From a candidate division WOR-3 bacterium (GTDB lineage: Bacteria > Hydrothermota > UBA3073): a stretch of 51,508 nt of DNA. The stretch is taken from positions 1-51,508 of the forward strand of contig JAYENM010000169.1 in NCBI GenBank assembly GCA_034722095.1, written 5' to 3'. Within the stretch, counting starts at the first letter, position 1. Every line of letters starts with the position of its first letter. Both the position numbers and the translations under genes were made by a program. Below are positions 7,196 to 48,142 of the stretch, one piece after another. The notes below the pieces were generated by a model, which saw only the letters and a list, made by a program, of their open reading frames with translations, was not told the DNA's origin and ran no database searches.

Positions 7196-8092
7196 ATGAA
7201 ACCTATCACCTGCATAGATGTCGGAGGGACATTCATAAAGGCGGGGAATGTTGTGAATGGTAAGGTAAGGCACGAGATAAAGATAGAGACGGGCGAGACA
7301 GGCATGCTTACAAGAACCCTCTTACAGATTATCGTTGAACTGGGTGGCGAGGCAGTTGGTATCGGCATGGCAGGGCTGGTGGATGCAGACGGTACAATCT
7401 CATCCCCACCCAATTTCCCCGGGATAGAATCGCTTCCTTTAAAAGAAATCCTTCAAGAGGAACTCAATATTCCTGTGTTTGTTGATAATGATGCAAACAT
7501 GGCAGCCCTCGGCGAGCATAGATATGGAGCAGGAAGAGGGGTAAAGAATCTTATTATGCTTACACTTGGCACAGGTGTTGGCGGCGGAATCATCATAAAT
7601 GACAAGGTCTATCATGGCAGGGGATATGCAGGGGAGGTTGGGCACATCACGATAGACCCCAACGGTCCCCTCTGTCTATGTGGGAATTATGGCTGCCTTG
7701 AGAGTTACATAGGTGCTGACAGAATAACAGAGAGGGCGAGGGAATATGTGAGAATGGGGGTGGAAACCAGGCTAAGGAGTTATGCGGGTAACATCACACC
7801 AGAGATTATAGAGGATGAAGCCTACAAGGGTGACCATGTTGCAATGGATATTGTGGCGGAGATGGCAAAATTTCTTGGAATCGCTATTTCAAATTACTGT
7901 GCTATTCTTGATCCTGATAGGGTGATAATAGGTGGCGGATTGTCAAAAATGGGGGATATTTTGCTCTCAGGTGTCAAGCGAGAAGTTGGAAGGAGACTGT
8001 ATTCAAGGAAAGATATAGATATCGTGTTTAGTGAACTTGGCGACAGGGCGGGTATACTCGGATGCTACGAAATGGTAATCCACTCGATATAG
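7196..8092 (+). CDS. ROK-family sugar kinase (glucokinase-like)
   Basis: It has the N-terminal ATP-binding CIDVGGTFIKAG and the ROK signature with Zn-Cys motif GYAGEVGHITIDPNGPLCLCGNYGCLESY. Confidence 0.85.
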   Translation: MKPITCIDVGGTFIKAGNVVNGKVRHEIKIETGETGMLTRTLLQIIVELGGEAVGIGMAGLVDADGTISSPPNFPGIESLPLKEILQEELNIPVFVDNDANMAALGEHRYGAGRGVKNLIMLTLGTGVGGGIIINDKVYHGRGYAGEVGHITIDPNGPLCLCGNYGCLESYIGADRITERAREYVRMGVETRLRSYAGNITPEIIEDEAYKGDHVAMDIVAEMAKFLGIAISNYCAILDPDRVIIGGGLSKMGDILLSGVKREVGRRLYSRKDIDIVFSELGDRAGILGCYEMVIHSI

Positions 8093-8099
8093 TCCAATT

Positions 8100-8120
8100 G
8101 GCACAAATTGAATTTGTGCC
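8100..8120 (+). terminator. perfect 10-bp palindrome hairpin downstream of the ROK kinase gene (possible terminator; member of the repeat vocabulary)
   Basis: GGCACAAATT-g-AATTTGTGCC starts 8 nt after the stop codon. There is no clear T-tract, so terminator function is uncertain. Confidence 0.4.
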
Positions 8121-8153
8121 TACATTCTCCCTTTCTCCTTATGAATTTTTCAC

Positions 8154-10588
8154 ATGGACCTAATCAGAAAGATGAAAAGGTTATTACTTGTATTTGTCGT
8201 GACACTTGCCGCACGGGCATCTCCTCAGATGATTGCAGATATCACTGAAGATGTGGAAACCGAGTTCGGCACATACCATCCATATACAGTGAATGTCCAG
8301 CCGAGTATCCCCCCGTATTCGATAGAACCGGATTTCTCCAATGTTGTGAACTACAGTGACTTTGAGTTTACAGAAGATGACGAGTTGTATCTTCTCCAGA
8401 ACGCATTCTGCGTAGCCCCTTCAATCTATATGGAGATGTACGACATATACAACGAGGCAAGAGAGAATAATATACCAATATTCATAACTACTGACTGCGT
8501 GCTGCATACATACCATCTTCTCTATGACAAGATACTGAAGACTGCTGAAGAAGAGAGATTTACACAAGATTTGATCAATCTCACCGACGCCGTGCTCAAT
8601 CAACTTGAAACTGCCTACGATGGGGCTTTTGATACACTGGTAAGGGAGGCACTACTTCTCGATATCGCCTATGTGAGTGTGGGTTACTCCCTAATCGATA
8701 CTACTTTTATTCCGTGTCCCCTCGTTGACTCGCTCGTGGAGGCAGAACTATCTCTCATCTATGCCCACGAGGGATACACCCTCTCTCCAATCTTTGGATA
8801 TAGTGAGGACTACTCACAGTATGTCCCGAGAGGTCACTATACGGATTCAGAGGCACTTGAGAGGTTCTTCAGGGCGATGATGTGGTATGGAAGGATGACA
8901 TTTATGGTAGAACCTCCTTATTCGATGCCAGAATACGATGTCAGAAAATCCACCCGTATGGCAATAGTCTTTGTGTATGCTGTGGCAAATACAACGGTTG
9001 GAGATGAGTCCTGCATCTCTGTATGGGAGAGGATATATGTCCCCACCGTCTTCTTCGTTGGGAGAACGGACGATATTAATATCTACCAGTATATTGACAT
9101 TATGGAAGATGTCTATGGAGAGGACTTCGCATCGCAAACCCCAGACTACTTCGCAGACGAGTATCTACTGGATGAATTCGTAACAGAAGCCAGTTCGCTT
9201 CCGGGTCCCGAGATAACTACCTGGACGGTTGGGAAGGGATTCAGATTTATGGGGCAGAGGTTCATACCCGATTCGTACGTGTTGGATCAACTTGTATTCG
9301 ACAATATTCCTGATTTAAGAAGGAATTTTCCCAAAGGGCTGGATGTGATGTCTGTATTAGGCTCTAATAGAGCTTTCTGGATTCTCGATGAGATATACAA
9401 CGAGACTCAATACTATGGGTATGAGGACAAGATAGACTCTCTTAAGGTTATGTTTGCCGCACTTCCCGATGCCACCTGGGCTCAAAATCTTTACTGGAAC
9501 TGGTTATATTGTCTTATGCCCCTTCTTTTCCCAAAGGGAGAGGATACCCGCTGTTCATGCAGAATGAAGGGTGACGGGACAGGGAAATCTTTGCATCACT
9601 CGGCTCCTGGGCAGAACTTCGGCACGACACCGTACTGTATGCAAAACAGAGTACTACAGAAGTGGGCTCTCCACCCCCACCACCGCAGACACCGGGCTAT
9701 GTCGAACCCAATCCGTATCTGTATGCACGCCTTGCGTCTCTTGCAGAATATATGAAAGAAGGACTCGCTAGCCTTGACCTCCTCTTTTACGACCACGGGG
9801 AAAGACTAACAGCACTGAGGAATCTTCTTCTGTGTCTCAAGGTTTTGAGTGAGATGGAACTTCAAAACATACCACTCTCAGATGAGGACTACGAGTTAAT
9901 AAACTCCATCGGTGGCATTCTCCAGAATCTTGTGTACTTTGAGGATGAATACTCCGACGACCAATCAGAGGCTCCCTCTTTCGATTCTGACGACCAGATG
10001 CCGGTTGTGGCAGATGTGCATACCGATATGAATACACTGTGCTGTCTTGAGGAGGGTGTCGGTTATCCATTTTATATCTATACGATAGCCCCCATAGAGG
10101 GAGAATTACATATCACGAGGGGCGCCTGTTTTTCATACTTCGAGTTCATACAACCCATCTGTGACAGGCTGACGGACGAGGCGTGGCAGGAGATAATCCA
10201 GACAGATGCACCATCACTTCCCGTATGGGTCCAGAGTTTTATGGACTCATCGCAGGATTGTACCGTCCCTTATTCTGACCACTACTGGGGATCTGGGGGT
10301 CTCCTTACCGAAGTTCAGGAATCCGTTATTCAATTGCGACCCGAAATCGTTGTCCCGAACCCGACGAAACTACCCTTGGAGATCTCATATTTTCTTCCAA
10401 AAGGCTGTTTTGTGACTCTTGAGCTTTACGATGTAATGGGAAGGAGGATAAAAACGCTCTTCCGGGGATGGCAGGATGAGGGTTCACATCCAGCCACATT
10501 TAACGGAGACTGCCCTGAGGGTGTCTATTTCCTGAGACTTACAGCAGGCAGGAGACAGACTACAAAGAAGATAATTATCCTGAAATAG
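8154..10588 (+). pseudogene. DUF3160-family secreted protein with T9SS C-terminal sorting domain, disrupted by a frameshift plus an in-frame TGA
   Basis: Track ORFs 8154-9755 and 9662-10588 are one gene. Frame 0 is protein-like up to PLLFPKGE (about 9542) and then turns into R/H/C-rich nonsense. The -1 frame continues GYPLFMQNEG, TGA (9572-9574), RDREIFASLGSWAELRHDTVLYAKQS. DUF3160-like motifs are YVPRGHYT, FFRAMMWYGR and FRFMGQRFIPDSY. The C-terminus LELYDVMGRRIKTLF...GVYFLRLTAG...KKIIILK is a T9SS tail. Confidence 0.7.
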
Positions 10589-30286: not shown

Positions 30287-33200
30287 ATGAGCAATAATCG
30301 TTATAAAATACTTAAGAAAGTCGGTTCAGGTGGAATGGGCATTGTCTACAAAGTTCTCGATACACAAACCAACACACACCTCGCCCTCAAAACTTCCTCC
30401 AGCAAGCATATCAAAAATGAATTTCTGACACTCTCAAAACTTCACCATCCAAATATTGTAAAAGTCTACGACTTCGGAGTTATGGAGTGCAATCCGCCTC
30501 AGGCGGATGTTGTTGCAGATACGACCTTATCACAGCATTCCAAACAATACTTCTTCACTATGGAGTACATTGAGGGTAAAAATTTGTATGACCTGTTTAG
30601 AGATAATCTACCCAAGACCAGAGCTGAGTATCAACTTCTTTACTCCATAATACTCCAGATCTGTGATGCACTCAGGCTCATTCATTTTCACAAACTTATC
30701 CATTGTGATATCAAACCCAGCAATATACTGATACAATTCTCCGAAACTCAGGAACCCAGAACTGTTATAACAGACTTCGGACTTATAGAGAAAGAGGCAG
30801 CCCAAAAACTCAAGGGCACTCTCCAATACATCGCCCCTGAAGTTCTCAAGGGCGAGAAAATCGATCAAGGTGCAGACCTCTTCTCCCTGGGTGTGACCAT
30901 CTATCAGGTACTAACACATCATCTTCCCTTTGCGGGTGGTAATGCTCTCACTCTTATCAAGCAACATACAAAAGATAAAATAAAACCACCAAAGGAATTC
31001 AACCCTGCAGTACCGGGAAGGTTAAACGATTGTACCTTGGATCTTTTGCAACCCAAACCTCGAAGAAAAACTAAGTCCATAGATGAACTTAAAAAATTTA
31101 TCCATCAAATCTCAGGAAAATCTCAGTTAGCCACTGTCTTTACATCCCTACTGATAGGCAGGCAAAAGGAACTTTCCATCCTTAAAACTACCTGGCAGGA
31201 AGTTAAAACTAACAAGGGTAGGGCTATCTTACTATACGGTGAAAATGGAATAGGAAAGACGAGACTCTTGCAGGAGTTTAAGCCCTACGCCCAAACCGAA
31301 GGAGCACTGATAAAGGAATTCGATTCGAGAAGAAACATTCTAAAAACTTTTACTGATATTATTGAGCAAAAACCCCTTGGCGGAAAGGAGCTAAGCCTGT
31401 TTGAGAAAATAACAAACAAACTCCTGAACGAAGCAAAACAATCCCCACTCCTTCTCGTAGTCGAAGACCTTCAGTCCCAGGGAGAGACTGCCCTTAACTT
31501 GATGGAGTATCTTATAAGGTCTATTGGATCTGCTCCAATTCTTTTAATCATCACTTCTTCGGATACAAAACTCATTAGCAAAGATGTGCAATCCATAAAT
31601 TACCTTAACCACATCAATCTTATACCCCTCAACCCACATGATACTACCACACTGGTCAAGTCTATGCTCTTAACAGATAACAAGGTGAAAGACATCGGGA
31701 CTCTAATTCATACCCATACCGAAGGAAATCCCTTCCTCATCACGACATTTACACGAAGCCTGGTAGAAAACAAAATTCTTGAAAGAACCAAAGGAAAGTG
31801 GACTCTATCGGGCGATAAGCTAAAAACCTATCAGGCTCCAAAAGACATCAAAGACTTCATAGCCCCTGCCTTAAGAGGATTAAGTGAGGATGAATTTAAT
31901 CTGTTAAAAATAGGGACTCTCCTCAAAAATTACTTTATCCTTCCTGTTCTAAAGGACATAATCAGCGTAAAAATCCATACTCTCTACAGTCTCCAGAAAA
32001 AAGGCCTTATCATAGAAAAACCTGCTGAAAACTACTCTTTTACCCATCAAATGGTCTCCAATGTGATTGAAAAGAATATACCTGTCAGCGAAAGAGTTTC
32101 ACTTCATAGAAAAATAGCCAGCATACTGGAACATCGGTTTCAGCAAAACCTTGAGAGAATAGCCCCTGACCTCACTTATCACTATTCACAGGCAAATGAA
32201 ACTACCAAAGTATACAAATTTGCTCTCCTGTCTGGAGAAAGGGCAAAAAACACATCGGCAAATACGGAAGCAGCGGAATACTTTGAACTTGCACTATCTC
32301 TTGCCGACAAATTGGGTAGAAAAAGAAAGAAATTCACCCTTTATGAAACCCTCGGTGATCTCTATCGCACTATGAGCAAATATCAGGACGCCCTCATAAA
32401 ATATGAATCCGCTCTTCCTCTTGTAACCGATGATTCCTGTACAAGAATTTACAGAAAAATAGGAATGATATACAGAGACCAGCAAAATTATGACAAGGCA
32501 CTGAATTACTTTCAGAAAGGATTTAAGGTGCCCTCCAAAGATGCATCTCAAAAGGTGCTCCTCCTCAGTGACATTGGATGGGTTCATATGTGCCTCGGAG
32601 ACCTTAACAAATCCCTGTCTTACTCTCAAAAAGCAATCAAAATGGCAGAAGAATACAATGACCAATTTGGCTTGAGTTATACCTATAGCACTCTCGGTAC
32701 ACTCTGCTTCCAGAAAAGCAACTACGAAAAAGCAATGCAATATTACAGAAAAACACTAAAGGTCGCTAAGAAAATTAAGAATCAAGACATCATTGAGTCT
32801 ACCTCATACAACCTTGGACAAATCTCGTGGAAAACAGGAAAACCGAAGGAGGCAGAGAACTTCTACAAAAAGGGCCTAAAAATCCAAGAAAAAAAAGGCA
32901 ATCCTCATATTCTTGCCCGATATTATAACGCCCTTGGAATCCTCGCGCAAGAACAGGGAGATTTTGATAACGCCCTGACACATTATACATCAGCCCTTGA
33001 TATATTCAAAAGAATAGGAAACAAACAAAGAATAGCCACAGTCCACATGGCACTGGGTACTATGTACCAGGAGAGAGGCGACTTAGACAATGCAATTGAT
33101 AACTATAAAGCAGCCCTTTTGATATCTCAGGAGACAAAAGACACGCCTCTAATTGCACGGATATACAATAACCTTGGTAATCTCTACAAGGATACAGGGA

Positions 33201-35365
33201 ATTTAACAAAGGCAATCAAAAACCTTGAAAAAGCCCTCAAAATTGAGAAGCAAGGCTCGGATTGGAGAGATACAGCATCTACCCTGCACAATATAGGAAT
33301 AGTCCGTATGCTCCAGGGCAAGATGGAGGATGCTTCCAAATTCCTTCACCAGAGCTTCCATCTTCACCAGGAACAGAAATCAAAGAAAGGAATGGCAGAG
33401 GTATGTCCAACTTTGGCTGAATATTATTTGCTTACAGGCAACATCACTACTGCCGAAGACTACTGCCTGAAAGGGATTAAACTGTGTGAAGAAATCAATG
33501 ACTACCTATATCTCGGTATTACCCAAAGGGTCCTTGGCACTGTATACTCCCGGAAAGCAGAAATGGATAAGGCGCTCATCTCTTACTCCAAATCCATAGA
33601 GACTCTAAAAAAGTTGAAGACAGAACACGAACTCGCCAAAACCCTCCTTATTGCCGGAGAAGAGGTCTTTTCTAATAGAGGAAAAATAGGTAGAAAATTC
33701 TGGCGAGAAGGGCTTCTTGACCAGACCTTAACAAGACTAAAACAAGCAAAGCAAATATTCAAAAACCTGAATGCAAGTGCAGATTTAAAGAGAGTGAATT
33801 CTCTGATTTCGAAACTTGAAAAATATTCCCCCCTCATCCTTGAACCCATTCCTGGAGAAGACAAAAAACTTAAGACCCTTTACAGAATGAGCCAAATAGT
33901 AAACTCAACAATGGAGATAAATGAGCTGCTTGAAAAAATACTGGACCTCACCATTGAAACTATGGAAGCAGAAAGAGGCTTCATACTACTGAGAGAAGGA
34001 AAAGAACTTATGGTAAAAACCGCCAGAAATATGGATAAACAATCAATTGCTGATATGTCAGACTTTTCAAAAACCATAGTGGAGAATGTAGAAAAGAAAG
34101 GCGAGCTGATAATCACTTCCAATGCCCAGACAGAGCCAAGATTTAAAGATAGGAAGAGTATAGCCAAATTCAAACTCCTTTCAATTCTGTGCGTTCCCTT
34201 TAGAATTAAGGACCATGTCGTTGGTGCCATCTATATTGATGACAGAAGAAAAAGAGATGCCTTTACCTCAGAAGACCTTGCATTCCTTCGAGCCTTTTGT
34301 GATCAGGCTGCCATAGCTCTCGAAAACGCCAAGTTAATAGAAGAACTAAGGACCGCCAACAAACTACTTGAACTCGAAAATATTGATATGCAAGACCAGA
34401 TTACTCATCTAAGAACCGCCGTGGAAGAAAGATATAGCTTTGGTAACCTGATAGGAAAAAGTGAACCAATGCAAAAGGTATACGATGCCCTTGAAAAAAT
34501 CATCAAATATGACTCCTCTGTAATAATTGAGGGTGAAACAGGGACAGGTAAGGAGATTGTTGCCAATATCATCCATTATAACGGACCCAGAAAGGACAGG
34601 AATTTTATCGTTGTAAATTCAAGTGCTATACCAGAGGAACTCCTTGAATCAGAACTATTCGGCTATGTAAAAGGAGCATTCACTGGGGCCACCCACGATA
34701 AGCAGGGACTCTTTGAAATAGCAGACGGTGGAACTATCTTCTTCGACGAAATTGCAGAATTAAACCCAAATCTCCAAGTCAAACTACTAAGGGTTCTTCA
34801 GGATGGTGAACTGCGAAGGGTTGGAGCCACAAAAAGTAAAAAGGTTGATGTAAGAGTGATAGCAGCAACCAACAGAGACTTACAAAGGCAAGTAAAACAG
34901 GGAAAATTCAGAGACGACCTCTACTACAGGTTAAATGTAGTGTCAATCAAGATGCCCCCTCTAAGAGAAAGAAAAGAAGATATCCCAGTTCTTGCAGCTT
35001 ATATCCTTCGCAAATTCAGAAAGAAACTCCACAAGAATGTAACCGGGTTTACACCAGAAGCCCTTTATCTCCTTCAGAACTACCAATGGCCAGGTAATGT
35101 AAGAGAACTCGAGAATGTCATAGAAAGGGCTATTGTTATGGCAGAAGGTAAAAAAATCACCGAGAAAGATTTGCCAAAATCATTAACTCAAGGAGAACCT
35201 GGCGAAGAAAAAGAAACCACCCTTCTCTGTTCCCTTGTCGATATAGAAAAGAGATGTATCAAGACAGCTCTTAAAGCCTCAGGAGGTAACAAGAGAGAGG
35301 CAGTAAAGTTACTTGGTATATCAAGACCAACCCTCGATAGAAAGATGAAAAGATACGGTTTATGA
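30287..35365 (+). CDS. 1692-aa fusion: Ser/Thr protein kinase + STAND/AAA_16 P-loop NTPase + long TPR array + GAF + sigma54-interaction AAA+ domain + Fis-type HTH (bacterial enhancer-binding protein)
   Basis: Kinase motifs are GSGGMGIVYKV, LALKT, HCDIKPSNIL (30701-30724), ITDFG and YIAPEVL. The P-loop is LLYGENGIGKTRLL (Walker A at 31238-31261). TPR_12-like repeats span roughly 32.2-33.7 kb (for example YNNLGNLYKDTGNLTKAIKNLEKALKI). GAF covers about 33.9-34.3 kb. The EBP core has GETGTGKE (34532-34555), ESELFG and an intact GAFTGA (34673-34690). The C-terminal HTH is REAVKLLGISRPTLDRKMKRYGL. Confidence 0.85.
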   Translation: MSNNRYKILKKVGSGGMGIVYKVLDTQTNTHLALKTSSSKHIKNEFLTLSKLHHPNIVKVYDFGVMECNPPQADVVADTTLSQHSKQYFFTMEYIEGKNLYDLFRDNLPKTRAEYQLLYSIILQICDALRLIHFHKLIHCDIKPSNILIQFSETQEPRTVITDFGLIEKEAAQKLKGTLQYIAPEVLKGEKIDQGADLFSLGVTIYQVLTHHLPFAGGNALTLIKQHTKDKIKPPKEFNPAVPGRLNDCTLDLLQPKPRRKTKSIDELKKFIHQISGKSQLATVFTSLLIGRQKELSILKTTWQEVKTNKGRAILLYGENGIGKTRLLQEFKPYAQTEGALIKEFDSRRNILKTFTDIIEQKPLGGKELSLFEKITNKLLNEAKQSPLLLVVEDLQSQGETALNLMEYLIRSIGSAPILLIITSSDTKLISKDVQSINYLNHINLIPLNPHDTTTLVKSMLLTDNKVKDIGTLIHTHTEGNPFLITTFTRSLVENKILERTKGKWTLSGDKLKTYQAPKDIKDFIAPALRGLSEDEFNLLKIGTLLKNYFILPVLKDIISVKIHTLYSLQKKGLIIEKPAENYSFTHQMVSNVIEKNIPVSERVSLHRKIASILEHRFQQNLERIAPDLTYHYSQANETTKVYKFALLSGERAKNTSANTEAAEYFELALSLADKLGRKRKKFTLYETLGDLYRTMSKYQDALIKYESALPLVTDDSCTRIYRKIGMIYRDQQNYDKALNYFQKGFKVPSKDASQKVLLLSDIGWVHMCLGDLNKSLSYSQKAIKMAEEYNDQFGLSYTYSTLGTLCFQKSNYEKAMQYYRKTLKVAKKIKNQDIIESTSYNLGQISWKTGKPKEAENFYKKGLKIQEKKGNPHILARYYNALGILAQEQGDFDNALTHYTSALDIFKRIGNKQRIATVHMALGTMYQERGDLDNAIDNYKAALLISQETKDTPLIARIYNNLGNLYKDTGNLTKAIKNLEKALKIEKQGSDWRDTASTLHNIGIVRMLQGKMEDASKFLHQSFHLHQEQKSKKGMAEVCPTLAEYYLLTGNITTAEDYCLKGIKLCEEINDYLYLGITQRVLGTVYSRKAEMDKALISYSKSIETLKKLKTEHELAKTLLIAGEEVFSNRGKIGRKFWREGLLDQTLTRLKQAKQIFKNLNASADLKRVNSLISKLEKYSPLILEPIPGEDKKLKTLYRMSQIVNSTMEINELLEKILDLTIETMEAERGFILLREGKELMVKTARNMDKQSIADMSDFSKTIVENVEKKGELIITSNAQTEPRFKDRKSIAKFKLLSILCVPFRIKDHVVGAIYIDDRRKRDAFTSEDLAFLRAFCDQAAIALENAKLIEELRTANKLLELENIDMQDQITHLRTAVEERYSFGNLIGKSEPMQKVYDALEKIIKYDSSVIIEGETGTGKEIVANIIHYNGPRKDRNFIVVNSSAIPEELLESELFGYVKGAFTGATHDKQGLFEIADGGTIFFDEIAELNPNLQVKLLRVLQDGELRRVGATKSKKVDVRVIAATNRDLQRQVKQGKFRDDLYYRLNVVSIKMPPLRERKEDIPVLAAYILRKFRKKLHKNVTGFTPEALYLLQNYQWPGNVRELENVIERAIVMAEGKKITEKDLPKSLTQGEPGEEKETTLLCSLVDIEKRCIKTALKASGGNKREAVKLLGISRPTLDRKMKRYGL

Positions 35366-35370
35366 TAAAG

Positions 35371-35387
35371 TGTAACGTTTTGTTACA
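35371..35387. promoter_or_regulatory. candidate enhancer (UAS) palindrome A: TGTAAC-gtttt-GTTACA
   Basis: The extended perfect 9-bp arms are AAGTGTAAC/GTTACACTT (35368-35390), 3 nt after the EBP stop codon. It could double as a weak terminator hairpin because TTTTT follows. Confidence 0.55.
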
Positions 35388-35490
35388 CTTTTTAGAGAGT
35401 TAAGACTAATCCTCCCTTCAGGGAAATTTCTCCCAACTCCTTAAAAAGGCATAACTTGTGAAAATTCGACAAAACTGACGACAAGAGAAA

Positions 35491-35507
35491 TGTAACAAAA
35501 TGTTACA
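35491..35507. promoter_or_regulatory. candidate enhancer (UAS) palindrome B: TGTAAC-aaaat-GTTACA
   Basis: It belongs to a 32-nt unit (GAAATGTAACAAAATGTTACACTTTTTTGAT) that is repeated in tandem. Confidence 0.6.
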
Positions 35508-35522
35508 CTTTTTTGATGGAAA

Positions 35523-35539
35523 TGTAACAAAATGTTACA
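35523..35539. promoter_or_regulatory. candidate enhancer (UAS) palindrome C: TGTAAC-aaaat-GTTACA
   Basis: It is identical to site B and 32 nt (about 3 helical turns) downstream. It lies 103 nt upstream of the sigma54-type promoter. Confidence 0.6.
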
Positions 35540-35625
35540 CTTTTTTGATAACAAAGAATAACACTCTTCTAAAGGGATTTTGTAAGTCCTTACAAATGCA
35601 GCCATTACGCAAGTTCTCGTTCAAT

Positions 35626-35642
35626 CTGACACGCTTTTTGCT
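35626..35642 (+). promoter_or_regulatory. sigma54-type (-24/-12) promoter, CTGACACGCTTTTTGCT
   Basis: It matches TGGCACG-N4-TTGCW at every conserved position and in spacing, except that the second G of the -24 GG is A. The identical 17-mer recurs at 42311-42327. It lies the right distance downstream of palindromes next to an EBP gene. Confidence 0.55.
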
Positions 35643-35684
35643 CCTTATAAATAATGAGTAAATAAACTAAAGGAGGTGAGTAGA

Positions 35685-35834
35685 ATGAGTAAATTTCTAA
35701 AAAAGTTGTGCTTGATGGCAATAGCACTCATCCTTGTCCTATTAACAGCCACTATGGCATTTGGAGGTAACATCCACCCACCAATTGACCCTCGACCACC
35801 CACAGTTTATGGTATTGGCGGTAGTGGCAGATAA
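35685..35834 (+). CDS. 49-aa secreted pre-peptide (not in the ORF track): MSKFLKKLCLMAIALILVLLTATMAFGGNIHPPIDPRPPTVYGIGGSGR
   Basis: I translated it by hand. A consensus SD AGGAGGTG (35671-35678) lies 6 nt before the ATG. The peptide has a Lys-rich n-region, a 15-residue hydrophobic core and an A-x-A-like TMA|FG site, then a Pro/Gly-rich tail of about 23 residues. TAA is at 35832-35834 and a strong hairpin follows immediately. Confidence 0.65.
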   Translation: MSKFLKKLCLMAIALILVLLTATMAFGGNIHPPIDPRPPTVYGIGGSGR

Positions 35835-35839
35835 ATCAT

Positions 35840-35875
35840 AAGGGAGGGTGCAGAACCCCTTCTTTACCCTCCCTT
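35840..35875 (+). terminator. intrinsic-terminator-like hairpin after the peptide gene
   Basis: The perfect 10-bp stem AAGGGAGGGT (35840-35849) pairs with ACCCTCCCTT (35866-35875) around a 16-nt loop. TGTATCTTT follows, which is a modest T-tract. Confidence 0.55.
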
Positions 35876-36207
35876 TGTATCTTTGCGTTATACGACACAG
35901 ACAGGCAATTTTTGACAGTTAAGCCAGTGCTATCTTGGGGTATATACGATTTGCCCGATTCATATTTGAAATTGTCTTTTGTGGTCAAAGTGATATTTTT
36001 TATCATTTGTGGTAGTGTCAAATAGAATATGAAAGAATATGACAAACCACAGTCATACGACCCGTCCTTACGGATCCGTATGGATATGGGAGGTCACAGA
36101 GTAAATTTAATTCTCTGTGCTCTCCAAAAGAGTTTCCTCTGAAAGATAAAACGGAAAAGATAATTGCCTGTGCTATTGAAGTCCATTCAACTTTAGGTCC
36201 AGGTCTG

Positions 36208-36597
36208 TTGGAGAGTGTTTATGAGGAAGCGTTGGCGTATGAATTTGAGTTGAGGGGAATAAATTTTGAAAGGCAAAAAGAGATTATGCTTGAGTATAAA
36301 GGGAAAAGCATAGGTCCGCATCGGATAGATTTTTTAATAGAAGAACAGGTGATATTAGAGATAAAGGCAACAGAGGGAATGAAGAAGATATTTGAGGCAC
36401 AGGTTTTAACATATATGAAAGCAATAAAGAAAAAAGTGGGACTACTTATAAATTTCAATGTAGAAAGGTTGAAAGACGGGATAAAAAGATTGGTCTTATC
36501 CGTGCGGATCCGTATGAATAAGAGGTCACAGAGGGGAGGGAAAAGAATCTTTTGTAATTCCTTAATACTGAACATTCTCTGTGTTCTCTGTGGTTAA
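36208..36597 (+). CDS. GxxExxY-family protein (PD-(D/E)XK-like), lacking a canonical start and with a repeat-encoded tail
   Basis: The family hallmark GPGLLESVYEEALAYEFELRGINFERQKEI...HRIDFLIEEQVILEIKA is present. Homology (KTEKIIACAIEVHSTL) extends upstream of the track's TTG start to about 36139. There is no ATG, GTG or TTG in frame after the stop at 36040-36042, only CTG. The last 30 or so codons are translated from the flanking repeat. Confidence 0.6.
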   Translation: MESVYEEALAYEFELRGINFERQKEIMLEYKGKSIGPHRIDFLIEEQVILEIKATEGMKKIFEAQVLTYMKAIKKKVGLLINFNVERLKDGIKRLVLSVRIRMNKRSQRGGKRIFCNSLILNILCVLCG

Positions 36598-36634
36598 ATT
36601 TTTGACAATACTTCATTTGTAACTGGGGGATATT

Positions 36635-42055: not shown

Positions 42056-42072
42056 TGTAAAATTTCTTTACA
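42056..42072. promoter_or_regulatory. variant enhancer palindrome A': TGTAAA-atttc-TTTACA
   Basis: The extended arms are AAGTGTAAA/TTTACACTT (42053-42075). Its relative position is the same as site A of the first module. Confidence 0.5.
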
Positions 42073-42175
42073 CTTTTCGGGGTGTTATGGCTAACCTTTC
42101 CTTCAAGGGGATTTCTCCCAAGTCCTTAAAAAATCAAAACTTGTAGAAATTCGACAAAATTGGCAGTCGGAGGAG

Positions 42176-42192
42176 TGTAAAGTTTCTTTACA
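42176..42192. promoter_or_regulatory. variant enhancer palindrome B': TGTAAA-gtttc-TTTACA
   Basis: It lies 120 nt after A', exactly as B lies after A in the first module. Confidence 0.55.
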
Positions 42193-42207
42193 CTTCCATC
42201 AAGAAAA

Positions 42208-42224
42208 TGTAAAGATTCTTTACC
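42208..42224. promoter_or_regulatory. variant enhancer palindrome C': TGTAAA-gattc-TTTACC
   Basis: It lies 32 nt after B' and 103 nt before the promoter. These are the same spacings as in the first module. Confidence 0.5.
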
Positions 42225-42310
42225 ATTTTTAGGTCGCCATGACTGCCCCCTTTAGAGGAATTTTTTTCAAATCCCTGTCAGTTCACGCATTACGTAGATT
42301 CTCATTCTTT

Positions 42311-42327
42311 CTGACACGCTTTTTGCT
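42311..42327 (+). promoter_or_regulatory. second sigma54-type promoter, CTGACACGCTTTTTGCT
   Basis: The 17-mer is identical to 35626-35642. Confidence 0.55.
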
Positions 42328-42391
42328 TTTATAATATAGTGAAAGGTTGATTTCTGATTATGGGAATAAGGGTCCGAGGGAAGTGTTTTAT

Positions 42392-42589: not shown

Positions 42590-44869
42590 ATGTATCTTTT
42601 TATTATAATTCAGTTATTCCTTTCACCAGTCTGGGAGACACACGGACCCTATGGAGGAGAGACTATATGCATTGCCATAGACCCAAATAAAACTCTCTGT
42701 ATGTATGCGGGGACAGGGAATCCTGAATTAATAACAACGAATGGAGACGGTGTTTATGTAAGCACAGACGGTGGAGAAAACTGGAACCATACCTCACTCG
42801 GCTCTACTTTTGTTTGGGATATTGCAGTTGATTCTCATGGAGAAGTGTATGCTGCTACTCGTGGGTATGGAATTTTCAAGAGCACAGACAGAGGCACCAC
42901 CTGGAATTCAATAAATAACGGACTGTCATGTCTATATATATCTGATATTGCTATTGAGCCTCTCAATGACAGCGTTGTCTATGTAGGGACCGGAGACAAG
43001 TTTTATGGTAGTGTGTGGGATTGGTCAATGGATGGTATATACAAATCTACAGATAGAGGAGAAACCTGGAGTAGACTGGGACTGGACGGCACGACTGTAT
43101 CTTCCATTGTGGTGCATCCTGTGGCGCCAGAAACTCTCTATGCAGCGGTATATGATGTACCATGGGATAATACATCAAGTGAAGTAGGGATTTACAAGTC
43201 CTGCGATTACGGGGTTACCTGGATGTACAAAGCAGATATAGCTGCGAATGATTTAGTTATAGATCTGGTAAATCCCAATACAATTTACGCTGCCCCCAAG
43301 TGGGATTGGGATCACTTCTGGAAAAGCACGGATGGTGGAGAAACCTGGACATACTGTTATATGGGTATTTTTACGAATGAAATACGGACAATAGCGATTG
43401 AGCCATTCAACGACAGCATTATCTATATGGGTTGTGCCTCATATCCCACAATGGATGAAAAATTCGGTGGTATTTATAAATCTATAGATGCAGGGGATAC
43501 ATGGAGCGAAGTGATGGTAGGTATGCCAGACGAGCCTGTACATTCTATTGTTATTGGTATTGACAATCCCGATAAGGTCTATGCTACATGCAGTGGTCCT
43601 GGGGTGTATAAAAGTGTTGACAAGGGAGAAACCTGGGCATGGTCGTCTAATGGTATGAGGCTGCAGATAGTGACAGATTTGAGTTCGGCAAACGAAGACA
43701 TCTTTGCTGCGACAAGGTCCGGCGTATATAAAAGAGAGAGCTCAAGTGAAGTGTGGCATAATCGGAGCTCTGGGATAAGACAGGTTAGGACTATGTGCAT
43801 CGCTGCCGCGCCGTCTGCACCTGATACTATTTACCTCGGCACATTTGTCGGTGCGGGACCAACGCCATCTTATAGAAGTTTTGATGGTGGGGAGACTTGG
43901 ACCGGGTGTGCAGGAGGAGGAATTTGTCATATCCAGGTTAATCCTCTCAATCCCAGTGTATACTATGCTGTAGAGAAATTCAATTTTAGAAAAGTTTACA
44001 AATCAACTGATGCAGGCTCCACTGTGACCACTACCTTGGATACCACTAGTCCCGGATGTGTAGCAATAGATCCTGTTGATACAAACATAGTCTATGTAGG
44101 TGGCGGTTCTGGCAGCGCATGGGTTCTCAAAACTGTTGAGGGGGGCACAAGTTGGATAAGTATCTCCCAAGGGTTGGATTCAGGATTTGTCTGCGATATA
44201 GAGTTAGATAATTTCAACGAGGACATCCTCTATGCCGTTGTGAATGCCGATCTCTTTGGATGGGAAGGTAATGGAAAACTCTTCAGGTATAACGGAGATT
44301 TATGGGAAAGAGTAGGGGTTGATCTCCCAGAATTGCCATTCTCCTCCCTTAAGGTGGATCCAGTACTTCAGAGTGTTCTGTATATTGGCACCTATGGAGG
44401 AGGTGTATACAGAAGCATTGATGGAGGGATAGTGTGGAATGAGTTGAACGAGGGCCTCGGGAACCTCTTTGTAAACTGTATCATGTTAGACCCTCTCGAC
44501 CACACGAAGATATATGCAGGAACTAATGCCGGTGTATATTCAATCACCTCTCCCCCCGGTATTGAGGAAGAGAGTGCTATTACTCTCTCTCTTCTCACGG
44601 TCTCTCCAAATCCCTTCAGCACAACTACCGCTATCACGCTATCAGACTATCAGGCTAACGCTTCACGCTTTACGCCTTACACCTTACGCATCTACGACCT
44701 CACAGGCCGCCTCGTCAAACGATTTACGATTTTCGATTCACGGCTTACGAGTATAGTCTGGAATGGAAGAGATGACTCTGGCAATTCTTTACCTCCAGGG
44801 GTCTATTTCGCAAGACTTGAATCTGGAAAGACTGAATATAAAGCTGAGAAGATTGTAAAATTGAGGTAA
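42590..44869 (+). CDS. BNR/Asp-box (sortilin/Ycf48-like) beta-propeller protein with T9SS sorting domain
   Basis: At least 11 Asp-boxes are present: STDGGENW, STDRGTTW, STDRGETW, SCDYGVTW, STDGGETW, SIDAGDTW, SVDKGETW, SFDGGETW, STDAGSTV, TVEGGTSW and SIDGGIVW. The tail is VSPNPFSTTTAI...IYDLTGRLVKRF...GVYFARLESG...KIVKLR. The N-terminus MYLFIIIQLFLSP lacks a basic n-region. Confidence 0.8.
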   Translation: MYLFIIIQLFLSPVWETHGPYGGETICIAIDPNKTLCMYAGTGNPELITTNGDGVYVSTDGGENWNHTSLGSTFVWDIAVDSHGEVYAATRGYGIFKSTDRGTTWNSINNGLSCLYISDIAIEPLNDSVVYVGTGDKFYGSVWDWSMDGIYKSTDRGETWSRLGLDGTTVSSIVVHPVAPETLYAAVYDVPWDNTSSEVGIYKSCDYGVTWMYKADIAANDLVIDLVNPNTIYAAPKWDWDHFWKSTDGGETWTYCYMGIFTNEIRTIAIEPFNDSIIYMGCASYPTMDEKFGGIYKSIDAGDTWSEVMVGMPDEPVHSIVIGIDNPDKVYATCSGPGVYKSVDKGETWAWSSNGMRLQIVTDLSSANEDIFAATRSGVYKRESSSEVWHNRSSGIRQVRTMCIAAAPSAPDTIYLGTFVGAGPTPSYRSFDGGETWTGCAGGGICHIQVNPLNPSVYYAVEKFNFRKVYKSTDAGSTVTTTLDTTSPGCVAIDPVDTNIVYVGGGSGSAWVLKTVEGGTSWISISQGLDSGFVCDIELDNFNEDILYAVVNADLFGWEGNGKLFRYNGDLWERVGVDLPELPFSSLKVDPVLQSVLYIGTYGGGVYRSIDGGIVWNELNEGLGNLFVNCIMLDPLDHTKIYAGTNAGVYSITSPPGIEEESAITLSLLTVSPNPFSTTTAITLSDYQANASRFTPYTLRIYDLTGRLVKRFTIFDSRLTSIVWNGRDDSGNSLPPGVYFARLESGKTEYKAEKIVKLR

Positions 44870-44890: not shown

Positions 44891-47800
44891 ATGCTTAAGA
44901 AAATAGCAAGTATTATACTGGCGATAGGTTTTGCTCATATCGTCTTTGCCGATGTAACTCATAATGTCTATTTCTCATCATCGGATTTGACCTTCAGACA
45001 GGAGAAGGGATACGACATCGTGGAGTTAAAGGGATGCAACCTGATGGATGTGGTTGGCGAGCCCATGCTTTCTGTAAGATATATGAACCTCATTATCCCA
45101 GCGGGAAATAAGGTATCCAGAATAGAGTTTCCATTAGCCAATTCACAAAACATAGGAACCTACAACATCTATCCAGCGCAGCCACCAATCCCTGTAAGTA
45201 GTAGTGAACCGCCTGAATGGGTGGAACCAGACCCTCTTGTGTATAGTTCTGACGAACCCTATCCAGGCAAACTCGCAGAGGTTGTCCATGAGGGATATTT
45301 TAACGGGAATAAGATTGTGATGCTTGCGGTCTATCCACTCCAATGGATGCCAAGCACTGGAGAGCTCGTGTTGTATGACCACATACAGTTAAGACTCGTG
45401 TTGGAATCATCATCCGAAACTCCAGTCTATCCACAGATTATGACCGAGCAGAGTTACAAACTCTATAAATCTGCGTTGAGTTCGTTGATTGCAAATGACA
45501 AAGACAAGAGTGCCTATGGATATGAACCTACTGTTGTGACTCCACAGTCTGCTCCTGCTGAGTTTATACTACCTGCATCTTCTACAGAGATAATAGAGTA
45601 TATGATAATTACCCCCAATGCACTCACCTCATCTTTTAACTCTTTTGTGGAATGGTTATGGAAGAAGGGGATAAGAGCAGGGATTATCACTGTAGAGGAT
45701 ATACTTGCTTCATATCCTGGGGTTGACGATGCCCAGAAGGTGAAGAGATGCATCTGGAAGTGGTGGCAATTTAACTCTCTCACTTATGTGCTTCTCGCTG
45801 GAGATGATGGTATTGTACCTTTTAGATACGGTTGGGCCAGGAATAATCTAAATTTTCCACCACAGACTCGCGTAGATTCATTTTATATCATTCCTACTGA
45901 TCTTTACTTCTCGGATCTTTCTGGCAACTGGGATGTTGATGGAGACAATCGCTGGGGTGAGCCAGAAGATAGTATTGATATATATCCTGAGGTATATGTA
46001 GGGAGAGTGTTGGTACGGAACATGGAAGAAGTTAACAACTGGTTACAGCGGGTGTTGAATTACGAGCGAAATCCAGGAAATGCGTCTCTTATGAAAGATG
46101 TTATGTGGAGTTATCAAGAATATGACCCAGATACATCACATATGGGAGGAAATTTCATCAACTTTCAATTTCTTGTTAATCAGGCTATAGCGCATTTTCC
46201 TGAAGACTATACCCATTATCATTATTATGCTATGAGCTCCACTGAGAATCTATCTGGTCTGAATGAGGGATACGGGCAGGTATGTCTTTACGCCCACGGT
46301 TGGCCAGATAGATGGACAACGAGAACCTGGCCTGTTAGTTGGGTGTTTTCTTGGCCATCCGCTGGTGGCGGAGACCTGTACCATCTCTCTAATCCAAACA
46401 AGTATGGTGTTGTGTATTCAATTAGTTGTATGAATGCAATGTTTGATAAGATCTTGGAGGATGTTTGGCATTGCGAGGATACTACAATTGCAGATGGATT
46501 TACAGATGCTTATACAAATGGAGGCGAAGCCGCCTTTCTTGGAAACAGCAGATACGGATGGTCCCATACCTCTCCTTCTCTTCACCGGTGTTTTCTGGAT
46601 GTTCTATTCAATTCAAGCGACCTGTCTTCCAAGGTTGGATATGCTGAGGGAATATCCAAAACTCTTGGTGGGTCTAGGTATGTTTGGTATTCTCACAACC
46701 TGTTTGGCTCTCCGGAGACTCCTGTCTGGACTGATGTGCCACCACCTTTGACAGCAAGCCATCCATCCCGATTATATGTGGATCCAGAGATTACTCTGCT
46801 CCTCACTGTAACGGTTACATCTAATGGAAGTCCTGTAGAGGATGCTCTTGTTTGCCTATACAAGCCTTCAGATGATCCAGTAATTTACAAAAGAGGCTAT
46901 ACCGATGCAAATGGTGAGGTCACTTTTGATCTCCGTATTCGAAACACGGGATATCTATATGTTACTGCGACCAAACACAATTTCAAACCTTACGAAGGTA
47001 GAATTCTGTGCACCTACCCTCCCTGTCCCTTTCTCTATACCTATAATGGTTCAGAATTCATAGAGGATAACAATATCCTTTCAGGTTCTGGAACTGTAGA
47101 AGATTGGTATAAGCTGAGGGAGAAACCCCTTAAAGATGAAAATAGATATAGGTTACAGATAAAGGAGAATAACGATGAGCATTCATTCTTTGACAGGGTG
47201 AGACTTTATGCTATTGACCATCCAGACTCTGTTGAAGTATTCGTGACACAGGATGGAGAGATTGTCTCCGTTTCTATGATGTCCGCTTCTCAATCAGTTA
47301 TTGGGGAGGATGGAGTTGATTATACTACAGTGCTTCTTGACAGAGATAGTGTATGGGTTGAGGCAAATGAGGTTGAAAAGATCACCGCTGAATTTGGAGG
47401 AACTAATGGAGGAGACTACGTCATACTCGCACCACCAGGGCCGAAGCCAAGACTTATGGTTGAAGAAGCAAATGGTTCAAGTTTTGAAACTGTCGGTTCC
47501 ATTCGTGGAAGAGAGAACCCATCCTATGAGGTGCTTCCTCTTACAGTTTCATCTCCCGAGGAGGTGAGCCTGAGATTCACATTCACTGATGTCTCCCAGA
47601 GACTTGACTATATACGGTTTGGGAAGAGAAACAATGCTCCATATCATATAAAACCCTGTCCACTTGTGGCTGCTACCCACTCTGACATTGGTTCTGTCAA
47701 GCAGAAACTACTTATTGATGATGAGAACTATGCAGAACTTCTTCCCTGTGATACGATAACACTTGAGTTTGCAGTTGTTGATATAGAACCTGGATGGGTG

Positions 47801-48142
47801 AGAGATTTTGTGTTTGTATCAAATGGATATTATGTAACAGAAGGCAAAGGCGGTTCACAGACTGCATATAGCAGTATTCCTTTGGTTCATTCTCTATCAC
47901 TATATCCAAATCCAGCAAAGAATGATATGAATATCAGATTTGGTATACCGAGAGAAGAGAAGGTCTCTCTTAAAATTTATGATGTATCAGGCAGAGAGGT
48001 AAAGATGCTTGTAGATGACAGACTTGAAGCAGGTTATCATATTATAAAATTGGATAGTGAGAATCTTCCCTCTGGCATCTACTTCGCAAGGCTTGTGACC
48101 AATAACTATGAGGCGACAAAGAAGCTCGTGCTGATGAAGTAG
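44891..48142 (+). CDS. peptidase C25 (gingipain-like cysteine protease) with propeptide, unknown C-terminal module and T9SS sorting domain
   Basis: It has a signal peptide and a C25 propeptide-like N-terminus (FRQEKGYDIVELKGC...GEPMLSVRYMNLIIP). Other markers are YMIITPNALTSSFNSFVEWLWKKGIRAGIITVEDI, YVLLAGDDGIVPFRY, FSDLSGNWDVDGDNRWGE, the His region VCLYAHGWPDRW and the Cys region VVYSISCMNAMFD. The tail is YPNPAKNDMNIRF...IYDVSGREVKML...GIYFARLVTN...KLVLMK. Confidence 0.8.
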   Translation: MLKKIASIILAIGFAHIVFADVTHNVYFSSSDLTFRQEKGYDIVELKGCNLMDVVGEPMLSVRYMNLIIPAGNKVSRIEFPLANSQNIGTYNIYPAQPPIPVSSSEPPEWVEPDPLVYSSDEPYPGKLAEVVHEGYFNGNKIVMLAVYPLQWMPSTGELVLYDHIQLRLVLESSSETPVYPQIMTEQSYKLYKSALSSLIANDKDKSAYGYEPTVVTPQSAPAEFILPASSTEIIEYMIITPNALTSSFNSFVEWLWKKGIRAGIITVEDILASYPGVDDAQKVKRCIWKWWQFNSLTYVLLAGDDGIVPFRYGWARNNLNFPPQTRVDSFYIIPTDLYFSDLSGNWDVDGDNRWGEPEDSIDIYPEVYVGRVLVRNMEEVNNWLQRVLNYERNPGNASLMKDVMWSYQEYDPDTSHMGGNFINFQFLVNQAIAHFPEDYTHYHYYAMSSTENLSGLNEGYGQVCLYAHGWPDRWTTRTWPVSWVFSWPSAGGGDLYHLSNPNKYGVVYSISCMNAMFDKILEDVWHCEDTTIADGFTDAYTNGGEAAFLGNSRYGWSHTSPSLHRCFLDVLFNSSDLSSKVGYAEGISKTLGGSRYVWYSHNLFGSPETPVWTDVPPPLTASHPSRLYVDPEITLLLTVTVTSNGSPVEDALVCLYKPSDDPVIYKRGYTDANGEVTFDLRIRNTGYLYVTATKHNFKPYEGRILCTYPPCPFLYTYNGSEFIEDNNILSGSGTVEDWYKLREKPLKDENRYRLQIKENNDEHSFFDRVRLYAIDHPDSVEVFVTQDGEIVSVSMMSASQSVIGEDGVDYTTVLLDRDSVWVEANEVEKITAEFGGTNGGDYVILAPPGPKPRLMVEEANGSSFETVGSIRGRENPSYEVLPLTVSSPEEVSLRFTFTDVSQRLDYIRFGKRNNAPYHIKPCPLVAATHSDIGSVKQKLLIDDENYAELLPCDTITLEFAVVDIEPGWVRDFVFVSNGYYVTEGKGGSQTAYSSIPLVHSLSLYPNPAKNDMNIRFGIPREEKVSLKIYDVSGREVKMLVDDRLEAGYHIIKLDSENLPSGIYFARLVTNNYEATKKLVLMK

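Follow-up and report, generated by a model that had tools for sequence, protein, structure and literature searches.

A sigma-54-type promoter module with GA in the -24 element in a candidate division WOR-3 bacterium whose sigma-54 carries threonine at position 456

Introduction

Promoter recognition by sigma-54 is the textbook example of a rigid code, in which the GG and GC dinucleotides of the promoter and the RpoN box of the sigma factor are treated as invariant. The classical consensus of the promoter is YTGGCACG-N4-TTGCW (PMC12316311). Recognition of the -24 element was addressed in E. coli by randomising R455 and R456 of sigma-54 as well as the -24 hexamer (PMC12096077, Nucleic Acids Res 2025). 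According to that study, substitutions of R456 retarget the second base of the GG dinucleotide, R456H leading to GA, R456L to GT and R456Y/M/W/F to GC. R456 is called 100% conserved there, no residue other than arginine having been found at this position in nature, and the question is raised why nature never explored other solutions. R456T is not among the seven substitutions chosen for lost GG recognition. A R455A/R456C double mutant abolishes activity in vivo (PMC2715252). On the side of the activator, three enhancer sites, all of them required, are described for NorR at the norVW promoter of E. coli (PMC2831303). Our literature search retrieved neither a description of residues other than arginine at R456 in natural proteins nor a study of sigma-54 in WOR-3.

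Here, a promoter module of a WOR-3 bacterium is described, in which the -24 element deviates from the consensus at exactly the second G, and is compared to related genomes and to the sigma-54 proteins encoded in them.

Results

Genomes and searches

The window (the whole stretch of DNA that was analyzed, 51,508 nucleotides) is contig C169 of the host genome, a metagenome-assembled genome of 2.0 Mb on 358 contigs with a completeness of 88% and a GC content of 40.6%. It was compared to 22 genomes of the WOR-3/Stahlbacteria class of the host and to 250 other genomes of the phylum. For the promoter counts, 19 genomes from other classes served as the arginine-type set. The search with a 15-mer covered 40 relatives, with one mismatch allowed and a reversed pattern as control.

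The module in the window

The module and the genes on either side of it comprise the following features (window coordinates).

30287..35365, forward strand: gene of an enhancer-binding protein of 1692 aa, with its stop codon one base before site A
35367..35391, no strand assigned: site A, a 25-nt perfect palindrome (AAAGTGTAAC-GTTTT-GTTACACTTT) with the core TGTAAC-N5-GTTACA at 35371-35387, a putative distal enhancer site
35487..35517, no strand assigned: first 31-nt unit with site B, core at 35491-35507
35519..35549, no strand assigned: second, identical 31-nt unit with site C, core at 35523-35539, 32 nt after site B
35626..35642, forward strand: sigma-54-type promoter CTGACACGCTTTTTGCT, with the -24 element TGACAC at 35627-35632 and the -12 element TTGC at 35638-35641
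35685..35834, forward strand: target ORF of 49 codons, led by a strong Shine-Dalgarno sequence (AAAGGAGGTGA) and encoding a signal peptide and a proline-rich tail
35840..35875, forward strand: GC-rich hairpin followed by a T-rich tail (TTTGTATCTTT), RNA fold -22.6 kcal/mol

The promoter agrees with the classical consensus at all conserved bases except for the second G of the -24 element, as the preliminary description had correctly stated. GA is found in place of the canonical GG in all four copies in the genome and also in the orthologous copies of relatives. Since GG is lacking at -24, the promoter is filed here as a variant of the sigma-54 class and not as a canonical member. The spacing between the -24 element and the GC of the -12 element is exactly the canonical one, TGACAC-N5-TTGC being present at 35627-35641 and again at 42312-42326. 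The latter is part of a second, identical copy of the 17-mer (42311-42327), the reuse of which had also been described before and was found again; 0.06 occurrences of the 17-mer are expected by chance.

The exchange of GG for GA turns YTGGCA into YTGACA, which resembles the -35 hexamer of sigma-70. The element might accordingly be a sigma-70-type promoter, or be used by both sigma factors, with CTGACA as -35, an AT-rich hexamer 17-18 nt downstream as -10, and the palindromes as operators of a conventional regulator. A consensus scan gave 10/12 matches for CTGACA-N18-AATAAT (35626-35655) and for CTGACA-N18-TATAGT (42311-42340), and a perfect TTGACA is present in some relatives. Sigma-70-like sites were, however, no more common than in shuffled sequences (3 versus 1.7 +/- 1.4 and 2 versus 1.5 +/- 1.2), and among 13 module copies the best -10-like hexamer wanders, with spacers of 15-19 nt and at most 4/6 matches in seven of the copies. 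Furthermore, CGCTTTTTGC is invariant, although it would be a mere spacer in a sigma-70 promoter; the homologous promoters of relatives with arginine-type sigma-54 contain TGGCAC and no -35 hexamer, and the neighboring regulator is a sigma-54 activator bearing the GAFTGA motif. A sigma-70-type promoter is considered improbable on these grounds, while weak dual use of the element by sigma-70 is possible.

Perfect matches to the palindrome TGTAACNNNNNGTTACA are located at 35371, 35491 and 35523 and, even with one mismatch allowed, nowhere else in the 51.5-kb window. Shuffled sequences contained 0.08 matches on average, and none of 100 shuffles reached three. The spacing given in the preliminary description was confirmed, with start-to-start distances of 120 and 32 nt and with site C starting 103 nt before the 17-mer; the corresponding values for sites A and B are 255 and 135 nt. 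Two details had to be amended. The arms of site A, reported as perfect and 9 bp long, are indeed perfect but comprise 10 bp, and they start one base after the activator stop codon TGA (35363-35365). The unit carrying sites B and C is an exact repeat as reported, but is 31 nt long with a period of 32 nt, rather than a 32-nt unit. The geometry agrees with an enhancer (UAS) of a bacterial enhancer-binding protein, for which inverted repeats 80-200 nt upstream of the promoter and phased by whole helical turns are characteristic.

Palindromes of this kind might also exert their main function in the RNA, as hairpins, site A then serving as the terminator of the activator transcript. Site A directly follows the stop codon, leads into a T tract and has an RNA fold of -10.6 kcal/mol (z-score -3.3), and sites B and C fold at -8.3 kcal/mol. 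The stems, however, are weak and rich in AU, the T run belongs to the palindrome, and none of the palindromes was called by the terminator scan on the forward strand. In addition, the three-site phasing of 120 and 32 nt and the fixed distance to the -24/-12 elements are also found in copies without an upstream gene, and the half-sites change symmetrically from TGTAAC to TGTAAA, as expected of a site for a dimeric protein. A main function as RNA hairpins is therefore regarded as very improbable, although site A could, as a hairpin, additionally provide the activator gene with a weak terminator.

Judged from the position of the -24/-12 elements, transcription would start near 35652-35654. The peptide encoded by the 49-codon ORF reads MSKFLKKLCLMAIALILVLLTATMAFG, GNIHPPIDPRPPTVYGIGGSGR; a Pfam search with it gave no match. 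The hairpin at 35840..35875 is probably the terminator of a one-gene transcript; it was not called by a simple terminator scan.

Copies of the module in the host genome and their activator

The module, approximately 280 nt in length, is present in four copies in the 2.0-Mb genome. The copies and the features belonging to the second one are located as follows.

C169, 35367-35642: module described above
C169, 42053-42327: second module of the window
C175, around 9580-9733: third module
C233, around 7426-7698: fourth module
42056..42224 of the window, no strand assigned: palindromes of the second module, TGTAAA-N5-TTTAC[AC] at 42056, 42176 and 42208
42311..42327 of the window, forward strand: the GA promoter for the second time, followed by a leader and two type IX secretion (T9SS) cargo genes
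42590-44869 of the window: first cargo gene, encoding a BNR/sortilin protein with a T9SS sorting tail
44891-48142 of the window: second cargo gene, encoding a C25 peptidase with a T9SS sorting tail

In copies 2 to 4, the palindromes are of the type TGTAAA-N5-TTTAC[AC] in place of TGTAAC-N5-GTTACA. The offsets between sites and promoter amount to 255/135/103 nt in both copies of the window and to 256/136/105 nt in the copy on C233; the copy on C175 is without the distal site and has offsets of 135/104 nt. The target of the C175 module is an operon of secreted proteins ending in a T9SS tail, and the stretch downstream of the C233 module is now REP-like and IS200-like sequence.

The 18-mer TCTGACACGCTTTTTGCT is 100% identical in all four copies, whereas the upstream flanks are 61-83% identical (17-39% divergent) and the 40 nt downstream of the promoter 30-72%. 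The combination of divergent flanks with an invariant 18-mer indicates constraint and not recent copying. For the identical 17-mer, the preliminary description had offered two explanations, a lineage-specific sigma-54 consensus or a recent duplication. The second of these was discarded in view of the flank identities. The first gained support, as the 15-mer is the same across genera and families.

Perfect non-coding matches to TGRCACGNNNNTTGCW in the genome were restricted to the four GA sites, and the sole perfect match with GG lies inside a coding ORF (C210). Two further kinds of candidates were rejected. TGGCAC-N5-TTGC at C31 has one mismatch; no gene follows it, and the surrounding sequence is rich in GC and probably encodes a structured RNA. 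The matches to TGACACCCTTTTTGC (C306, L012, L018) are inside the ribosomal protein L27 gene and represent coding coincidences.

The gene ending next to site A encodes, as stated in the preliminary description, an enhancer-binding protein; its GAFTGA loop is intact. The Pfam domains of the gene product are, in order, a Ser/Thr kinase, AAA_16 (STAND NTPase), a TPR array, GAF, the Sigma54_activat AAA+ domain and HTH_8. Both activator motifs are intact, the Walker A sequence GETGTGK being found at residue 1416 and GAFTGA at 1463. The protein is the sole strong match to PF00158 in the 88%-complete genome (240 bits), the next matches scoring 32 and 26 bits in proteins of roughly 800 aa. Because there is only one strong match to the sigma-54 activator domain, one activator probably serves all four modules. 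Its HTH domain is predicted to bind the palindromes, since the sites adjoin the activator stop codon in the host genome and in several relatives. Two paralogous activators, one for TGTAAC and one for TGTAAA half-sites, were considered and rejected: one true activator was found in the 88%-complete genome, and in relatives TGTAAA-type sites directly follow the orthologous activator gene.

The sigma-54 of the host and its relatives

A sigma-54 promoter implies an rpoN gene, the presence of which had been suggested as a check, and exactly one was found in the genome (C209). The gene product of 450 aa contains all three sigma-54 domains, i.e. the activator-interacting, the core-binding and the DNA-binding domain (PF00309, PF04963 and PF04552, all above cut-offs). 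The RpoN box reads ARTTVVKYRK compared to ARRTVAKYRE in the canonical protein, which corresponds to R456T and A459V in E. coli numbering. A canonical box has both R455 and R456; in the host box, the second of these is replaced. In a HMMER alignment, no gap separated the box from its counterparts in E. coli sigma-54 and in the RpoN domain of Aquifex, the structure of which was solved on -24 DNA (2O8K/2O9L, 5UI5).

The threonine is not confined to the host. Of the 22 class genomes, 19 yielded rpoN copies (21 in total, covering six families) with a box of the type ARTT[VI][VI]KYR; the box of 19 genomes belonging to other classes is of the type xRRT[VI]xK[YF]R. When A-R-T-T-[VI]-[VI]-K-Y-R was searched for as a degenerate DNA pattern, 18 of the 22 class genomes had exactly one match each and the 250 others had none; the controls gave zero matches. 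All four threonine codons (ACA, ACC, ACG and ACT) are used at position 456, so the threonine is conserved at the protein level. A maximum-likelihood tree groups the 13 threonine-type proteins in a single clade (support 98/95) with deep internal branches. In an alignment of 18 threonine-type and 30 arginine-type sequences, the two types are fully separated by only four columns, one of which is R456T. A word-seeded search of 5.8 billion proteins yielded ten threonine-type matches, all of which are close WOR-3-like sequences; the other matches retrieved were all RRT, including those with V at 459. At least one relative (G016) has a second, canonical rpoN beside the threonine-type one.

Promoters in related genomes

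Whether the GA form recurs upstream of genes had been proposed as a further check, and it was found at such positions across the genome as well as in relatives. In the search with TGRCACGCTTTTTGC, the GA form was present in all seven other genomes of the host family, mostly in more than one copy, and the GG form in none of them. Members of the phylum that are less closely related carry TGGCACGCTTTTTGC or close variants, and the reversed-pattern control gave 0-1 matches per genome. The relatives with arginine-type sigma-54 likewise have TGGCACGCTTTTTGC at the promoter.

The architecture of the module is also shared. In six relatives from two families (G001, G002, G005, G006, G007 and G016), three palindromes of the TGTAAC, TGTAAT or TGTAAA type are followed by TGACACGC[TA]TTTTGC, and in several of these genomes the activator stop codon is located just before the sites. 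A small signal-peptide gene follows the promoter in four of them; orthologous peptides are encoded behind this promoter in five relatives, and each of these peptides combines a signal peptide with the motif P-[PI]-[VI]-[DE]-P-x-P-P. In three arginine-type genomes (G022, G038 and G040), TGGCAC[GA]CTTTTTGC is found at equivalent intergenic positions behind other palindromes.

Site counts in relatives pool coding and intergenic sites and therefore include coding noise; they are as follows.

22 class genomes: TGACAC-N5-TTGC 148 (reversed control 43), TGGCAC-N5-TTGC 116 (reversed control 19)
19 arginine-type genomes: TGACAC-N5-TTGC 65 (reversed control 25), TGGCAC-N5-TTGC 171 (reversed control 16)

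Genuine sigma-54 promoters normally have G or A directly behind CAC. The base at this position was used as a proxy for genuine promoters, with the following proportions of sites having G or A.

GG sites in arginine-type genomes: 87%
GA sites in arginine-type genomes: 35%, which looks like noise
GA sites in threonine-type genomes: 69%
GG sites in threonine-type genomes: 64%

G after CAC was found in 54 of 131 GA sites of threonine-type genomes compared to 5 of 65 in arginine-type genomes (Fisher p = 4e-7, a value which is overstated, as the genomes are related and samples in statistics across them are not independent). By the proxy of the base following CAC, promoter-like TGACAC-N5-TTGC sites are essentially limited to threonine-type genomes.

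A second GA family, consisting of TGACACGGAAYTTGC and TGACACGAAATTTGC, recurs in families f1, f2 and f6 and has the CACGGAA flavor typical of canonical sites in arginine-type genomes. A metagenome scan for TGACACGGAAYTTGC listed at least 80 loci; among those listed, 73 were coding and none of the seven others looked like a WOR-3 promoter. Three threonine-type genomes (G017, G019 and G020) have mostly TGGCAC sites, of which those in G017 look genuine. One GG site (L017) is intergenic with a palindrome upstream.

That threonine-type genomes with mostly GG sites exist would also fit an explanation in which the sigma-54 promoters are real and GA has nothing to do with R456T. GA would then weaken the promoter but be tolerated, having been inherited together with the module and maintained by gene conversion among the copies, and the threonine would be neutral or serve another purpose. 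The identical CGCTTTTTGC in all copies could reflect common descent of one promoter family, and R456T is not among the E. coli mutants losing GG recognition in PMC12096077. The second GA family is, however, unrelated to the first, GA sites with a promoter signature are essentially absent from arginine-type genomes, and the 18-mer has remained unchanged across genera despite the divergence of its flanks. Moreover, the substituted residue is the very one shown experimentally to set the base at -24 in the same study. A coincidence of GA and R456T is thus rated as unlikely.

The preferred reading connects the two. Because some threonine-type genomes still use GG, the specificity of T456 is probably relaxed rather than switched, and the absence of R456T among the GG-losing E. 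coli mutants fits such a relaxed specificity. In the simplest reading of the sequences, T456 no longer discriminates between G and A at -24 and the families differ in how far their promoters have shifted, those of the host family having moved almost completely to GA. We infer a causal link from T456 to GA; the link may be permissive rather than instructive.

Discussion

The promoter and its surroundings suggest the following mechanism. Dimers of the activator would bind the three palindromes via the C-terminal HTH_8 domain, the centers of the palindromes being located approximately 274, 154 and 122 nt upstream of the predicted start. When the kinase, STAND, TPR and GAF sensor parts permit, the activator would assemble into an AAA+ ring. 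The DNA would then loop, bringing the GAFTGA loops into contact with a sigma-54 RNA polymerase parked at TGACAC-N5-TTGC, and ATP hydrolysis would open the promoter. The product would be a one-gene message for the 49-residue secreted proline-rich peptide. The same activator would drive the three further copies of the module, two of which are upstream of secreted or T9SS cargo genes. GA at -24 would not be a defect here, as the arginine reading the second G (R456) is replaced by threonine; a threonine-type sigma-54 would accept A at this position and probably still G, and the promoters of the host family would have drifted to, or settled on, GA.

What the comparison adds to the preliminary description is that the non-canonical -24 element is accompanied by a substitution in sigma-54 which extends over the whole clade and affects the residue reading the base in question. 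An enhancer-dependent sigma-54 module, whose GA at -24 suits the threonine-type sigma-54 found throughout the class, is a likely explanation of the locus as a whole. We lean, with less assurance, towards a change of the code across the class, i.e. in six of the seven families sampled. R456T would be ancestral in this case and the promoters would have come to use GA as well as, or instead of, GG, with the entire regulon of the host family on TGACAC; the two rpoN genes of G016 could then be a natural two-channel orthogonal system.

If this is true, nature did explore an alternative at R456, and a ready-made natural pair of sigma factor and promoter can be set beside the engineered ones. Predictors of sigma-54 promoters that are based on the consensus would miss whole regulons in such lineages. 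Furthermore, the co-change of sigma factor and promoter would be traceable, with one substitution at the base of the clade and mixtures of GA and GG that differ by family. It would also account for the control of a secreted mini-peptide and of T9SS cargo by a giant kinase-STAND-TPR activator in an uncultured bacterium. On the basis of comparative sequence and one published mutagenesis study, the natural variant is new within a very well-known system.

Among the systems described so far, NtrC/NifA-type promoters such as glnAp2 and nifH share with the module the exact -24/-12 spacing, inverted repeats 100-150 nt upstream at a mutual distance of about three helical turns, and an activator in which GAFTGA is combined with a Fis-type HTH. 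They differ in that the window has GA for the near-invariant GG, that its activator is a 1692-aa kinase-STAND-TPR-GAF fusion, and that its targets are a tiny secreted peptide and T9SS cargo instead of nitrogen or motility genes. The norVW promoter controlled by NorR (PMC2831303) is similar in having three activator sites before one sigma-54 promoter, which is consistent with three dimers seeding a hexamer. This is in contrast to the position of the sites in the window, where one of them is 120 nt away from the other two, and to the copy on C175, in which the distal site is missing.

The engineered sigma-54/promoter pairs come closest with regard to the code itself: in PMC12096077, too, it is R456 of the RpoN box that is exchanged and the second G of the -24 element that changes, with R456H as the partner of GA. 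The change in WOR-3, however, is natural, old and clade-wide, and threonine was not paired with a promoter in that study. Compared to the engineered pairs described there, the natural threonine variant looks relaxed rather than orthogonal, some of its lineages still using GG.

Sigma-54 variation within the class

The families of the WOR-3/Stahlbacteria class appear to differ in rpoN. In family f3 (L071 in genome G013, L072 in G009), the gene appears to terminate upstream of the RpoN domain. The L071 protein ends with ...FFTRRKKHVKSW, and its match to the Pfam DNA-binding domain is limited to positions 3-96 of 160. An rpoN lacking the RpoN domain in f3 would therefore mean two fates of sigma-54 in one class, with R456 (E. 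coli numbering) changed in six families or the reader of the -24 element lost in one. Two rpoN genes (L064 and L069) are encoded in G016 of family f2, one of them of the threonine type (RpoN box ARTTVVKYR, with T for R456) and the other one canonical (ARRTVAKYR). GA sites (TGACAC-N5-TTGC) and GG sites (TGGCAC-N5-TTGC) are near parity in this genome (10 versus 9). Together with these mixed sites, the rpoN pair could represent a natural pair of sigma-54 channels.

Contig C46 of the WOR-3 genome carrying the window (G000) encodes a 347-aa protein (L002:1225-2268) that combines a Sigma54_DBD-like domain with a region weakly matching the GIY-YIG nuclease, at a score under the Pfam cut-off. The RpoN box of this protein is degenerate (SLRSICNCRK). 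Comparable weak DNA-binding-domain matches were found in G003, G018 and G031.

Promoters and upstream elements

One of the two GG sites of G000, with one mismatch to the 16-mer consensus, is located on contig C31 (around 1500-1760). Its surroundings are GC-rich and outside any long ORF, and this stretch looks like a structured RNA. In family f4, L015 (G021) and L016 (G020) have the promoter TGACACGCTTTTTGC in common, but the repeats in front of it are quite unlike each other: one genome has GTGTGGCAAATCGCCACAC palindromes, and the other carries several AATGTTACA half-sites. By this comparison, the promoter is kept while the putative activator sites turn over. Most copies of the module (three palindromic putative activator sites, A to C, and a GA promoter) and their orthologues in the genus also share a conserved block, which ends up approximately 18-27 nt ahead of the -24 element:

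Window 35590-35612 and 42275-42297, and equivalent positions in other module copies: conserved block CATTACGCA or CATTACGTA

This block could be bound by a DNA-bending protein.

Module copies and their downstream genes

Downstream of the GA promoter at 35626-35642 are the following genes:

Window 35685-35834: small ORF, kept across the family (L026, L027, L028, L029), encoding a signal peptide and a short tail
Window 36208-36597: PD-(D/E)XK gene (PDDEXK_3), just after the peptide gene, within 36040-36600

The motif P-[PI]-[VI]-[DE]-P-x-P-P is conserved in the peptide tail across the family, the remaining tail being variable. The PDDEXK_3 gene is flanked by the near-repeats …CCGTATGGATATGGGAGGTCACAGAG… and …CCGTATGAATAAGAGGTCACAGAGG… and looks like an inserted element. 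Another module copy is found on a second contig of G000:

C175, around 9560-9600: AAATATGGTTTATGA, preceding the module copy

This sequence could be a remnant of the 3' end of an activator gene, whose final codons would be KYGL and stop. This putative relic is fused directly to a palindromic site 135 nt from the promoter, which suggests that the copy descends from an activator-proximal module through loss of the 120-nt A-B interval. The fourth copy (C233) is not followed by a cargo gene; the stretch downstream of it (7700-8250) contains REP-like palindromes, as well as a fragment similar to transposases of the IS200/RAYT type (…YYHFVWGTHNREPLI…).
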